Assembly (NCBI GenBank): GCA_024276825.1
Contig: JAJRWI010000037.1
Coordinates: forward strand, 28,786-92,785
Direction of reading: 5' to 3'
From: an archaeon
Lineage (GTDB): Archaea > Asgardarchaeota > Thorarchaeia > Thorarchaeales > Thorarchaeaceae
DNA: 64,000 nt
Part shown: positions 5,647 through 60,809 of the stretch, one piece after another
How the letters are laid out: each line of letters begins with the position of its first letter
Numbering within the stretch: position 1 is the stretch's first letter
The notes under the pieces: model-generated
What the model was told of the DNA's origin: nothing
Database searches by the model: none
What the model saw: only the letters and a program-made list of their open reading frames with translations
Position numbers and translations under genes: made by a program

Positions 5647-5810
5647 TGAACTGTAAATCTCAGAAGCGGAAAGATCGTGCAAAGTTATCATGTCAATCAG
5701 AATTGGGGCCATGACAAAAACTTGATGTTTCCACTTCTACTATCAGAAGATGGGAATGCATGGTCCTTGCTCGGACGGTTCATCTTTCGATGATAAGTTT
5801 AGAACATCCA
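5647..5810 (+). mobile_element. IS607-derived mini-element, copy D (shortest class, degenerate)
   Basis: Aligns by eye with the other four copies. MerR-HTH remnant (VSTSTIRRWE) joined at GAAtGCA to the right-end segment. End coordinate approximate. Confidence 0.7.
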
Positions 5811-5904
5811 TAGATCTCAGTAAAGAGATTTATTGAAGTTTTTTCTCACCAGTGAGAAAGGCTTATTTATACTCGGCCATCACTCCAATCAAATTCCAGC
5901 AACG

Positions 5905-5982
5905 GCCCCGGTAGTGTAGTCCGGTCCAGCATGAGGGACTCTCGATCCCTCGACCCGGGTTCAAATCCCGGCCGGGGCACCA
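5905..5982 (+). tRNA. tRNA-Glu(CTC)
   Basis: Acceptor GCCCCGG/CCGGGGC, anticodon arm AGGGA-CTCTCGA-TCCCT, TTCAAAT T-loop, encoded CCA. Confidence 0.95.
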
Positions 5983-22490: not shown

Positions 22491-22664
22491 GACAGCCTGA
22501 ACTTGTTCAAACTTGTCATTGGAGGATGAATCAGTCTGAACAAGGATCATGCGTTTCCATCTTCTGAGAGTGGAAGTTGAAACACCTGTTTCTTTGCCAT
22601 GACTTCTGCTCTGACCAACATGACATCTTTGCACAAGTTTTCCACTTCTGAATCTCACAGTCCG
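22491..22664 (-). mobile_element. IS607-derived mini-element, copy E (shortest class)
   Basis: The reverse strand reads GVSTSTLRRW joined at (G)AAACGCA to the right-end hairpin CTTGTTCAGAC...GTTTGAACAAG and the terminus CAGGCTGTC. Confidence 0.8.
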
Positions 22665-22699: not shown

Positions 22700-22804
22700 G
22701 CGACCGTAGTCTAGTTTGGTTAGGACGGAGGCCTCCCAAGCCTCCAACCCGGGACGGCTTTGTGCATACACGCCGCGGGAATTCAAATCCCGGCGGTCGC
22801 ACCA
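22700..22804 (+). tRNA. tRNA-Gly(CCC) with 28-nt intron at 53/54 (22754-22781)
   Basis: Anticodon arm GAGGC-CTCCCAA-GCCTC. BHB: CCCG/CGGG helix with GG|A and AA|T bulges; removal restores CCGGG-TTCAAAT-CCCGG. Confidence 0.9.
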
Positions 22805-45996: not shown

Positions 45997-46229
45997 TGAA
46001 CCGTAAATTTCAGAAATGGAAAACTTGTCATGTCAGTCAGAATTTGAGTCATGGCAAAAAGACTTGGTGTTTCCACGTCTACCCTTGGAAGGTGAGAACG
46101 CAAGGGACTGTTCACCCCACTCTCAAGAAACCCGATGAGTGGTGACACTTGTGAGGAAGGGCTGAACGCATGGTCCCTGTTTAGACGAATTCATCTCTTG
46201 ATGACAAGTTTGGATAAGCTCAGGTCGTC
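45997..46229 (+). mobile_element. IS607-derived mini-element, copy A (~235-bp class)
   Basis: Encodes the remnant MAKRLGVSTSTLGR*ERKGLF; high visible identity to 55987-56230; ends CAGGTCGTC. Confidence 0.85.
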
Positions 46230-52166: not shown

Positions 52167-53078
52167 ATGGCACGAGTGTTAGTTGCAGATCCGATAGCTG
52201 ACTCAGCCAGAGTCAAGATAGTAGAGGCAGGTTTCGAAGTGGTGGTTCGAGATAAGGAAAATGATGGTCCTCTGACAGAGCAAATCAAGGGCTTTGATTG
52301 TATAATAGTTAGAAGCGCTACAAAGGTGACCCGTGAAGTCTTCGAAGCGGCTGATAATCTAAAACTTGTTGTCAGGGCGGGTGTAGGACTCGATAATGTT
52401 GATCTTGAAGCGGCAAAAGATCATGGTGTAAAGGTATTGAACACCCCAGAGGCCCCCACAGTTTCAGTAGCAGAGATGGTCTTTGCCCTAATGTTTGCTC
52501 TAGCACGAAGAATCACACAGGCAGACAATCTGATGAAGAGGGAAGAATGGGCTAAAAAGAAGCTTAAGGGTGTTGAACTATGGCAAAAGACCCTCGGCAT
52601 AATTGGGTTTGGACGAATTGGATATGAAGTGGGTAAGAGGGCAAAGGTTCTAGGAATGAAGGTCCTTGCCTATGATGTGGTTGACATCGATAAACTCTGC
52701 AAAGATATTGGGGCCAAACGCGTTGAGTTCGATGAACTACTAAAGAGATCCGATTTTGTTACAATTCATGTACCACTACTCCCGCAGACCCGTGCACTCA
52801 TCAGTAGTGAACAGTTCAAGATGATGAAGGATGGCGCTTTTCTAATCAATACAGCTCGTGGTGGTGTTGTAGATGAGAAGGCACTTTTGGAGGCTCTGGA
52901 TGCTGGACTGATTGCAGGAGCAGCGCTTGATGTGTTTGAGAGTGAACCTCCCACCGACTGGGCCATCGCAAGACACCCCAAAATAATTGCAACCCCACAT
53001 TTATCATCATCAACAGTTGAGGCTCAAGTCCGGGTTGGTGAACTCACTGCACAAAAAGTGATTGATGAACTGACCTAA
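52167..53078 (+). CDS. D-2-hydroxyacid dehydrogenase (short SerA-like)
   Basis: RAGVGLDN, GFGRIG, INTARG, DVFESEP, TPH. Confidence 0.88.
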   Translation: MARVLVADPIADSARVKIVEAGFEVVVRDKENDGPLTEQIKGFDCIIVRSATKVTREVFEAADNLKLVVRAGVGLDNVDLEAAKDHGVKVLNTPEAPTVSVAEMVFALMFALARRITQADNLMKREEWAKKKLKGVELWQKTLGIIGFGRIGYEVGKRAKVLGMKVLAYDVVDIDKLCKDIGAKRVEFDELLKRSDFVTIHVPLLPQTRALISSEQFKMMKDGAFLINTARGGVVDEKALLEALDAGLIAGAALDVFESEPPTDWAIARHPKIIATPHLSSSTVEAQVRVGELTAQKVIDELT

Positions 53079-53084
53079 GCAATC

Positions 53085-53726
53085 TGAAATAGTAATCTTC
53101 AGATGAATGAAAGATATTCAAACTTGCCACGTTAGTCAGAATTGGAGTCATGGCGGAGAGGCTTGGAGTTTCCGTTTCCACTCTCTGAAGATGGGAACGC
53201 AGGGGACTCTTCTTACCCACTCTCAGGACACCCAGTGGGGACAGGCGTCATGAGACCTCCCCCAACTGATCATCCAACTCAGAGAGGAAACATGCATCAG
53301 TCTATGCACGGGCCTCATCATCGGTTTTTATACAAGCTTAAATTATGTCTGATGAATTCCCTATTGGACTAGCACACTGGGCATCGAAGAAACCCAGACG
53401 TACGAAAGCCCGAGGGAAGAAGACTTCTCGAGGGAGGTCCTTACCTCCTCGCAGCCATACTGCATTGCATTGGAAGGGGTCCGCGGTGGCAAGGACCATG
53501 CAGAGCACTCTGTGTGAGTACGACGACCCCCACTGTGTCCGGAGATGATGCGACCGGGGCAACACAGGGGGGCGGAGGCCAGTTCTGCGACAGTGCAGAA
53601 AAAGTCCCTGCAAACACTGGACATGTTCTGGTGGGTGGTAACACCTGCAGGGGAAGGGCTGAACGCATGAGTCCTGTTCAGACGAGTTCACCACTGTGCG
53701 ACAAGTCTGAACAGGATTAGGTTGTC
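53085..53726 (+). mobile_element. Degenerate IS607-family element, copy C (tnpA remnant, probable tnpB remnant, right end)
   Basis: LVRIGVMAERLGVSVSTL*RWERRGLFLPTLRTPSGDRRH (MerR-HTH), then YARASS (serine resolvase YARVSS), then a GC-rich eroded coding remnant, then the perfect hairpin CCTGTTCAGAC/GTCTGAACAGG. Confidence 0.85.
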
Positions 53727-53744
53727 ACCAATCGTTACACCTTT

Positions 53745-53788
53745 AAGGATCCCTTATGGAATTCAACTTGGTTCCATAAGGGATCCTT
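53745..53788. repeat. Perfect 17-bp inverted repeat upstream of rpl15e
   Basis: AAGGATCCCTTATGGAA-N10-TTCCATAAGGGATCCTT. Confidence 0.8.
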
Positions 53789-53885
53789 GTTCCTTTGTGT
53801 TGGCGGATGAGTCCGCTTGGGATGTGGCCCGCTTCGGGCTGAACCACAAACAAAGAGAATAGAACACTGCAAAGGAAGTAAGAAT

Positions 53886-54467
53886 ATGTCAGCATACAAG
53901 AGAATGAATGAAATCTGGTTGCAACACCAGAGAGAACGATCTGACCTCGTCAGAAGTAGACTGATTATTTGGAGAAAGCAAGGCACTATTGTACGTCTTG
54001 AACGCCCAACCCGACTGGGACGAGCAAGGTCTCTGGGATACAAGGCAAAACAGGGCTATATCATAGTGCGAGTTAAGACAGGTCGTGGTCCTAGAGAAAA
54101 GCCTAGACCAAGGATGGGGCGAAAACCACGAAGTCTGGGAGTCACAAAATATACCCCTCAGAAATCAAGACGTTGGATTGCTGAAGAACGTGTTGGAAGA
54201 AAGTTCCCCAATTTACGAGTACTGAACTCATACTGGGTTGGGTCTGATCATAAATGGGTCTGGCATGAAGTAATTCTTGTTGATCCAAACCACCCTGTGA
54301 TATACAACGACCCACACATCAACTGGATATGTGATTCCGTTCATAAGGGTAGAGAAAACAGGGGCCTTACATCTGCTGGGAAAAGAAGCAGGGGTTTAAG
54401 AAGAAGAGGGCGTGGTGCTGAAAAGATACGCCCCTCCCTACGAGCACGCGGTAATCGTGGCAAGTAG
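53886..54467 (+). CDS. rpl15e: 50S ribosomal protein L15e
   Basis: MSAYK, RPTRL.RAR.LGYKAKQG, LRVLNSYWV, RGLTSAG. Confidence 0.97.
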   Translation: MSAYKRMNEIWLQHQRERSDLVRSRLIIWRKQGTIVRLERPTRLGRARSLGYKAKQGYIIVRVKTGRGPREKPRPRMGRKPRSLGVTKYTPQKSRRWIAEERVGRKFPNLRVLNSYWVGSDHKWVWHEVILVDPNHPVIYNDPHINWICDSVHKGRENRGLTSAGKRSRGLRRRGRGAEKIRPSLRARGNRGK

Positions 54468-55989: not shown

Positions 55990-56230
55990 AACTGTAATAT
56001 TCAGAAGTGGAAAGGTTGTGCAGGCTGTTGTGTTAGTTGTAATTGAAGTCATAGCAAAGAAACTTGGAGTTTCCACATCTACTCTTGGAAGGTGAGAACG
56101 CAAGGGACTGTTCACACCCACATTCAAGACACCAGTGGGTGGTGATACTTGTGGTGAAAGTGCTGAACGCATGGTCCTTGTTCAGACAAGTTCATCTTCT
56201 GATAACAAGTTTGAATAAGTTCAGGTCGTC
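55987..56230 (+). mobile_element. IS607-derived mini-element, copy B (~240-bp class)
   Basis: Remnant IAKKLGVSTSTLGR*ERKGLFTPTFKTP, joined at GTGGG to the right end; ends CAGGTCGTC. Confidence 0.85.
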
Positions 56231-60702: not shown

Positions 60703-60809
60703 TGGTGGGCCCGGCCGGATTTGAACCGGCGACATTTTGGCCACAACAGCGTATGCTATCATGTCCGCCTTATCAGAGCGGCGCAATAACCAGGCTATGC
60801 CACGGGCCC
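60703..60809 (-). tRNA. tRNA-Ile(GAT) with 29-nt intron at 43/44 (60736-60764)
   Basis: GGGCCCG acceptor, CCGCT-CTGATAA-GGCGG arm. The insert folds as a relaxed BHB; removal leaves the 5-nt variable loop ATGTC. Confidence 0.88.

Follow-up and report, generated by a model that had tools for sequence, protein, structure and literature searches.

The closest described counterparts of the element analysed here are the IS200/IS605 and IS607 transposons, exemplified by ISDra2 (PMC8612924) and the IS607-type CboIStron (10.1101/2023.11.20.567912), with which it shares a structured RNA on the tnpB strand, the omega-RNA or reRNA of TnpB. In an IS607-type system that was tested, TnpB activity was abolished by most omega-RNA disruptions and required the pseudoknot (10.1101/2023.11.20.567912). 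Stand-alone omega-RNAs without an effector act in trans (PMC10691335, citing earlier work), and PATE-like gene-less elements encoding omega-RNAs have been described (PMC10055086); the idea of a trans-acting, stand-alone omega-RNA is therefore already published and not new. In Asgard archaea, the tnpB genes of aCas1-linked TnpB groups are followed by a conserved GTTCACTCA motif, with a variable stretch ahead of it (PMC10691335). On the side of transposition, IS607, IS1535 and ISC1926 have in common with the present element a serine-recombinase tnpA with an N-terminal MerR-like HTH (PMC6188088). IS607 ends combine near-terminal inverted repeats with short TnpA-binding motifs (PMC6188088), and an IS607-type TnpA_S needs no more than 60 bp of right end for excision (bioRxiv 10.1101/2023.11.20.567912).

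How does the present locus compare? The window, i.e. the whole stretch of 64,000 nt that was analysed (G000:C28:28786-92785), stems from a thorarchaeal assembly (G000; 2.9 Mb, 82 contigs, 98% complete) and contains copies A to E of a mini-element (Table 1). The original prediction had seen in the right-end hairpin of these copies the scaffold of an omega-RNA, and in the copies themselves possible protein-free guide loci. The stem and flank sequences quoted there are all present, and the four flank words are correct. We consider it likely that the hairpin is the terminal stem-loop of an omega-RNA/reRNA, which persists at the right end of internally deleted versions of an IS607-type element (serine tnpA plus tnpB). 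Whether these derivatives still act as guide genes is a separate matter, on which long and short copies have to be judged apart.

Table 1. Coordinates of the mini-element copies, scaffold parts and host features in the window
Feature	Position	Strand	Details
Copy C, gene-less IS607-type mini-transposon	53091-53726	+	~636 bp; delimited by end matches to other copies and by empty sites
Left-flank word TGAAA of copy C	53085-53089	+	candidate target or TAM-like motif
tnpA 5' remnant	53150-53257	+	dead serine recombinase, MerR-like HTH; MAERLGVSVSTL-(in-frame stop)-RWERRGLF..RTPSGDRRH
Scaffold 5' domain	53403-53595	+	in decayed remnant of the tnpB C-terminal tail
5'-domain hairpin	53539-53557	+	loop GATGA (53544-53548), candidate pseudoknot partner
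Scaffold 3' domain	53596-53727	+	132 model positions: two nested helices, small hairpin, linker GAACGCA, terminal hairpin
Terminal stem-loop, copy C	53671-53683 / 53705-53717	+	loop 53684-53704 with TTCAC
Subterminal inverted repeat, right-end copy	53700-53719	+	consensus ATGACAAGTTTGAACAAGTT; overlaps 3' arm; predicted TnpA contact
Host flank past copy C	53727-53746	+	ACCAATCGTTACACCTTTAA; guide if copy C is transcribed as omega-RNA
Copy A, right end	46164-46229	+	arms 46174-46186 / 46208-46220; ~100 nt of scaffold left
Copy B, right end	56165-56230	+	arms 56175-56187 / 56209-56221; ~100 nt of scaffold left
Copy E, right end	22491-22556	-	arms 22546-22534 / 22512-22500; shortest class, 72 nt of scaffold left
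Copy D, degenerate right end	5754-5824	+	broken 3' arm
serA-like dehydrogenase gene	52167-53078		one side of copy C
eL15 leader	53803-53850		other side of copy C
rpl15e	53817-54467		other side of copy C

Copy C and the mini-element family

Copy C, whose right end occupies 53630-53726 and whose left boundary is accurate to ~3 nt, is a true insertion: the orthologous intergenic site is found without it in a genome of the same genus (G001) and in one of a second genus (G003). Conservation among the copies drops to 38% immediately after 53726. The host word AATCGTTACACCTTTAAG, which starts at 53730, is present exactly at the G003 empty site and diverged, as AATCGCTACATCTTTAAG, in G001; this flank has no second match in genome G000. 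Between AATCGTTACACCTTTAAG and the eL15 leader lies a perfect 17-bp inverted repeat (AAGGATCCCTTATGGAA / TTCCATAAGGGATCCTT, 10-nt loop, 53745-53788), at the position of which two relatives have a different hairpin (GGCTCGAC..GTCGAGCC; CTCAGC..GCTGAG). The 17-bp repeat may belong to the rpl15e leader, as a part not yet annotated.

GG is absent from the element ends and the target. The left end starts with ~(A/N)GTAA, the right end reads GGTTGTC and is mostly followed by AG, and a core dinucleotide other than GG is possible. The left flanks have a loose TGAAC word in common (T10 G10 A9 A11 C12 of 15 copies, positions -12 to -8 before the left-end anchor), upstream of which the sequences are unrelated among copies. 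This word could be a target motif or, putatively, a TAM. As to the origin of the ends, the peptide of the dead tnpA remnant matches the N-termini of resolvase-domain ORFs in relatives with 44-57% identity (tblastn), and this HTH remnant at the left end marks the mini-element ends as derived from an element with a serine-recombinase TnpA and N-terminal HTH.

Throughout the genome, direct repeats and nhmmer revealed 19 right ends and 15 left ends, belonging to size classes of about 150, 205, 250-290 and 640 bp. The copies are 75-93% identical and hence old. The short classes arose by internal deletion between short repeated words, namely GAACGCA, which forms the deletion junction of copy E, and CCAGTGGG/CTGGTGGG. 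What the deletions left is the start of tnpA, a variable amount of scaffold, and the right end. Copy D, a weak nhmmer match (C28:34538-34588; E 1.3e-6 genome-wide, 3.2e-8 in a smaller search), had rightly been called degenerate.

Copies at contig ends (C47, C36 and both ends of C12) were considered as autonomous parents and rejected: they can be aligned to copy C without a break at its deletion junction, and thus look like further members of the 640-bp class. These contig ends (C47:1-318, C36:1-267, C12:1-263 and C12:14229-14487) break at the same two scaffold points (copy C positions 333 and 392), and C12 is flanked by right-end halves on both sides. Copy number is under-counted, since the assembly is tangled over a conserved word at four contig ends. 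A tnpA of either kind (PF00239, PF01797) was not found in the 98%-complete assembly, which makes present mobility doubtful.

A second degenerate IS607-like remnant is located on another contig (G000:C81, ~166.3-166.8 kb, L002); it comprises a TNB zinc-ribbon match in a 62-aa frame and, close by on the same strand, a tnpA HTH-like match. The window also holds three tRNA genes (5905-5979, 22700-22801 and 60706-60809), two of which are long (102 and 104 nt) and probably contain introns. The left end of copy E lies ~30 nt from the tRNA gene at 22700.

The terminal hairpin and the probable omega-RNA scaffold

What is the hairpin a part of? A 47-nt word inside copy C recurs, at 80-94% identity, in multi-copy sequences of 16 related genomes, where it lies within tnpB tails, and copy C can be aligned over ~325 nt to the tnpB 3' tail and the region downstream (17 loci, 14 genomes). 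In all aligned loci, similarity ends at one common point, the right end. Eight tnpB-bearing loci (seven from relatives plus contig C24 of G000) contain a conserved region that extends from the tail codons to the point where similarity stops, and copy C retains a remnant of the tail and the same right end. The scaffold of related Thorarchaeota is a structured RNA of the same sense as tnpB and ~320-390 nt in length, with its 5' end within the final ~110 codons of the ~550-aa tnpB and its 3' end at the transposon boundary.

Covariation among the relatives is strong. A plain MAFFT alignment of 13 relatives yields 29 pairs that are 88.9% paired, with 15 both-sided changes, a level reached by 0/500 shuffles; across alignments of relatives, both-sided changes affect 15-22 of the 29 pairs, and 32 copies from two other genomes are 94.2% paired. 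G-U cells far outnumber A.C cells (142 vs 15 and 83 vs 19), which points to an RNA on the tnpB strand. In the 5' part, helices 2-7 are backed by covariation; a helix guess at scaffold columns 12-18/25-31 was out of register (55% paired) and was dropped. A candidate pseudoknot helix joining the GATGA loop to TCAC(T) of the terminal loop is 91% paired and nearly invariant. The hairpin is also found beside solo tnpB genes with no tnpA nearby. In one relative (G013), a subfamily of orphans (L081, L083, L087, L089, L091, L099) has retained the stem, with the TCACTCA loop swapped for a short loop, GTTCCTAGAAC; the candidate pseudoknot would be lost in these loci.

RNAalifold, applied to a MAFFT alignment of G000 copies and relatives, missed the terminal hairpin, with the 3' arm misaligned by 4 columns; model-based alignment recovered it. 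A covariance model (R1) built from 13 sequences, all from genomes other than G000, matches copy C over its full length (1-132) with 66.1 bits (E ~1e-18) and the tnpB-adjacent copy on contig C24 with 80.9 bits. It further detects six full-length orphan domains in G000 at 58-71 bits and, weakly, one on C67 at 32 bits. In the model-based alignment, a type that is biased towards structure, 8/10 pairs of the terminal helix change on both sides between the G000 lineage (TCCTGTTCAGAC / GTCTGAACAGGA) and the relatives (TTTCTTGCAG / TGTAAGAAA). Since pairing is kept through these both-sided changes, the hairpin can be placed at the 3' end of the scaffold, as its final stem-loop, next to the variable flank. 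Its identity as the terminal stem-loop of an omega-RNA scaffold is thus well supported, and the proposed correspondence between right end and scaffold was borne out: the right end is homologous to the covarying RNA at the 3' end of the relatives' tnpB. The suggested comparison with known omega-RNA models, on the other hand, gave no family. RAGATH-18 and the other curated omega-RNA-like families of Rfam 15 gave nothing in 52950-53900, whether the gathering score or E up to 10 was applied, and nothing in three related loci with E up to 1; tRNAs and the eL15 leader were the only Rfam matches.

Within G000 alone, by contrast, covariation is weak. Among 18 copies, 84.5% of cells are paired, compared with 82.0% in shuffles, and both-sided changes occur in 4/17 pairs, which 214/500 shuffles attain; most changes are one-sided G-U. 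Restricted to the 13-pair stem, the same copies are 84.6% paired, with both-sided changes in 3/13 pairs. The covariation on which the original prediction built is strong among the relatives and weak among the G000 copies by themselves, where its own caveat, that transitions alone also create G-U pairs, proved apt. The arms of copy C (5' GTCCTGTTCAGAC, 3' GTCTGAACAGGAT) form 12 Watson-Crick pairs and one G-U, such that the stem described as perfect is so in its 11-bp core, the 13-bp version containing the G-U. For copy E, a compensatory change had been claimed; the pair is real, but there is no clean two-state swap, as 10 copies have U-A, 6 long copies C.A, and copy C alone C-G. Pairing in the inner TCAT/ATGA stem reaches 84%, and its letters also make up a candidate pseudoknot loop.

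The 3' arm probably serves transposition as well. Together with a few bases (ATGACAAGTTTGAACAAG) it is the inverse of a left-end word, AACTTGTTCAAACTTGTCAT; the inverted match amounts to 17/20 in copy E and 11/11 in copy A, and the right-end model also finds a left end in reverse. Left end and right-end 3' arm hence form a 20-bp imperfect inverted repeat near the termini. By analogy with other IS607 elements, the 3' arm is the likely TnpA binding region. It would then play a dual role, as a stem of the scaffold and as the right-end inverted repeat in which IS607 TnpA-binding motifs occur, and no copy that was still mobile could have dispensed with the hairpin region, regardless of RNA production. 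The inverted-repeat role alone can explain why small copies retain the hairpin. Likewise, the 72 nt left in the shortest class suit the need of the recombinase, for which 60 bp are enough for excision, rather than that of the nuclease.

Guide genes or transposition relics

The original prediction depended on a tnpB-like gene. G000 indeed has one intact tnpB (contig C24, 549 aa) with D, a shifted E and D at the RuvC positions. NADRN plus a glutamate six residues before the zinc finger were found in 6/6 genes checked, and GIDLG in 5/6. Inactivation of RuvC was considered, as the canonical RuvC-II glutamate is absent, and ruled out since the shifted glutamate is present; this arrangement has been described for some TnpBs and Fanzors (bioRxiv 10.1101/2023.08.09.552727). 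These TnpB-family genes match PF07282, and against NF040570 (guided TnpB) the G000 gene scores 102 bits, above the cut-off of 100, and a tested relative 83 bits, below it. The nearest protein cluster of the G000 gene is from Thorarchaeota. Its product is ~52-57% identical to the TnpBs of the relatives, the clade that the minis resemble, and the gene's own scaffold has a different terminal hairpin.

Scaffolds outnumber effector genes. Across 41 genomes, scaffold matches are in several-fold excess over tnpB-core matches (e.g., 79 vs 9, 47 vs 15 and 30 vs 8; in G000, 9 vs 1), and in many genomes of the family, orphans reach 3-9x the number of tnpB matches. In the 79-vs-9 genome, one scaffold adjoins a tnpB core match among the ~24 matches listed. 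At three loci (L051:598-2524 in G036, L053:3-2544 in G023 and L054:4867-7003 in G013), a ~555-aa tnpB adjoins two conserved divergent genes: one of ~230 aa, with 35% identity between genera, and one of ~500-600 aa, with 41% identity and a C-terminal D...E-x-K nuclease-like word (GRIDLV..ILEVKTK). Neither neighbour has a Pfam match or a homologue in G000; the arrangement represents a fixed neighbourhood or else a mobile unit of larger size.

Which copies retain enough scaffold? R1 scores copies A and B at 11.1 and 11.0 bits, the level of random matches, and does not find copy E. These three preserve 72-100 nt of the ~320-390-nt scaffold, without the 5' domain and the candidate pseudoknot partner, and short copies also lack helices 1-3 (the nested helices) of the 3' domain. 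Their hairpin is present with G-U pairs and some mismatches. Compared with shuffles, copy C (-38.4 kcal/mol, z -2.8) and copy E (z -3.0) fold well, and copies A (z -0.25) and B (z -0.6) no better than chance. In copy C and about seven other long orphans of G000, the 132-nt 3' domain is complete, and the 5' domain is present in some of them; copy C itself has lost one scaffold helix, located across the tnpB stop codon, as well as ~50 nt of its 5' domain, and shows one mismatch in the candidate pseudoknot. Of the copies named in the original prediction as protein-free scaffold loci, copy C is therefore the only credible one, while A and B score as noise and E is not recognised; the accompanying worry that the shortest class might keep too little for a full scaffold was justified. 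On sequence grounds, copy C and the other long orphans alone are plausible as guide loci; the short copies (A, B, D and E) are, we infer, transposition relics rather than guide genes.

That all minis, including the 150-200-bp classes, are working protein-free scaffolds which carry different guides and serve a TnpB or domesticated relative in trans would agree with the hairpin being retained in nearly all copies, with G-U exceeding A.C cells among G000 copies (46 vs 20), with higher conservation of the right-end arms (0.81-0.82) than of the loop (0.72) and left end (0.71), and with the intact tnpB. Against it, copies A and B score at random level and E is missed, the short copies are devoid of helices 1-3, the whole 5' domain and the pseudoknot partner, and the A and B hairpins do not surpass their shuffles. 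Given further that omega-RNA disruptions in the tested IS607-type system mostly ablated TnpB activity, with an essential pseudoknot (10.1101/2023.11.20.567912), and that the flanks lack a second target in the genome, this possibility is highly improbable, and current guide activity of the short copies has a correspondingly slim chance. If small copies kept the hairpin for transposition, could the inverted repeat be a DNA-level signal and nothing else, a transposase site or cruciform with no RNA role even in full-length elements? The 3' arm is, after all, the inverted left-end motif, IS607 elements have inverted repeats close to their termini as well as motifs bound by TnpA (PMC6188088), the shortest minis approximate the length needed by TnpA_S (10.1101/2023.11.20.567912), and the subfamily in one relative has lost the conserved loop and retained the stem. 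Yet the stem is one section of an uninterrupted covarying structure extending ~300 nt upstream, into tnpB, its arms co-change between lineages in a way that a protein-recognised half-site should not tolerate, the bias of G-U over A.C on the tnpB strand is strong, and the hairpin accompanies solo tnpB genes without a nearby tnpA. We regard a purely DNA-level signal as very unlikely.

The strongest competitor concerns not the origin of the hairpin but its present use: all copies, copy C included, might be inert relics whose structure was inherited from a functional parent and has yet to decay. We give this not quite an even chance. The missing tnpA and the age of the copies (75-93% identity) point in this direction, as do the internal deletions in the scaffold of copy C and the comparison of copy C with its closest long relative, where paired positions are not more conserved than unpaired ones (changed, paired vs unpaired: 18% vs 24% in the 5' domain, 8.6% vs 5.6% in the 3' domain). 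However, differences between long orphans at paired positions mostly keep the pair (copy C vs the C12 copy: 2 both-sided, 4 one-sided, 1 broken), and the 3-9x excess of orphans over tnpB matches in many genomes fits continued amplification. Current guide activity of the long copies is possible but doubtful. If they do act, on what target? Compared with the rest of the genome, the 18-nt flanks of the 19 copies gave no further exact match, and the few matches with 2 mismatches are at about chance level; flanks without a second genomic target fit homing at the empty site better than regulation of distant genes.

Returning to the reading that we prefer, a terminal omega-RNA stem-loop surviving on IS607-type deletion derivatives, the following course may be envisaged. 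Internal deletions at short repeats turned an IS607-type element into gene-less minis. Copy C and the long orphans would be transcribed and then bound in trans by a compatible TnpB, which would be directed to cut the empty site, specified by the ~TGAAC left-flank motif and the right flank. Cutting of the empty site would in turn favour re-copying of the element. A bolder extension, in our view unlikely, is that the gene-less loci with a full scaffold supply a few shifted-glutamate TnpBs with a scattered collection of guides acting in trans, copy C being one guide. If true, this would be an arrangement with many guides, intermediate between a selfish homing system and a CRISPR-like array and situated in the archaeal lineage closest to eukaryotes, and the target of the copy C guide would be the conserved word immediately upstream of the rpl15e leader.

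Relation to known systems

The analysis provides a covariance model for an omega-RNA family that is absent from Rfam and belongs to Asgard TnpBs in which the RuvC glutamate is shifted. A single sequence seems to have two roles in it, as a stem of the nuclease RNA and as a likely recombinase binding site. Moreover, minis that are possible guide genes can be separated from mere transposition relics, which matters for the counting of "orphan guides".

Relative to the IS607 family (PMC6188088), the ends described here are likewise asymmetric, with an imperfect inverted repeat near, not at, the termini. They differ in reading ~AGTAA...GGTTGTC instead of GG, and G000 has no intact tnpA. As in stand-alone omega-RNAs and PATEs, both ends and an omega-RNA are combined without an effector gene, and effector-bearing copies exist in the genome. 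The cited PATE cases are bacterial and of IS200/IS605 type, whereas the present ends are of IS607 type, with an HTH remnant of tnpA(Ser), and come from an Asgard archaeon; unlike in PATEs, most of the small copies have lost the scaffold.

Like the known TnpB omega-RNAs, the scaffold begins within the 3' part of tnpB and runs as far as the right end of the transposon, with the flank in the position of the guide. A left-flank motif common to the copies and a plausible long-range loop-loop (pseudoknot) contact are further parallels. Unlike them, it has no match in Rfam 15, is unusually long (~320-390 nt), lies under a C-terminal tail of ~110 aa, and has termini other than the usual GG. Finally, the layout recalls that of the aCas1-linked TnpB groups: the hairpin loop of the relatives reads G(T)TCACTCA, and before it comes a variable stretch that follows a conserved T. 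It has been suggested that this variable stretch may be the guide (PMC10691335). Here, the corresponding stretch is the 5' arm of the hairpin and co-changes with the 3' arm; the variable stretch before TCACTCA thus looks like scaffold.
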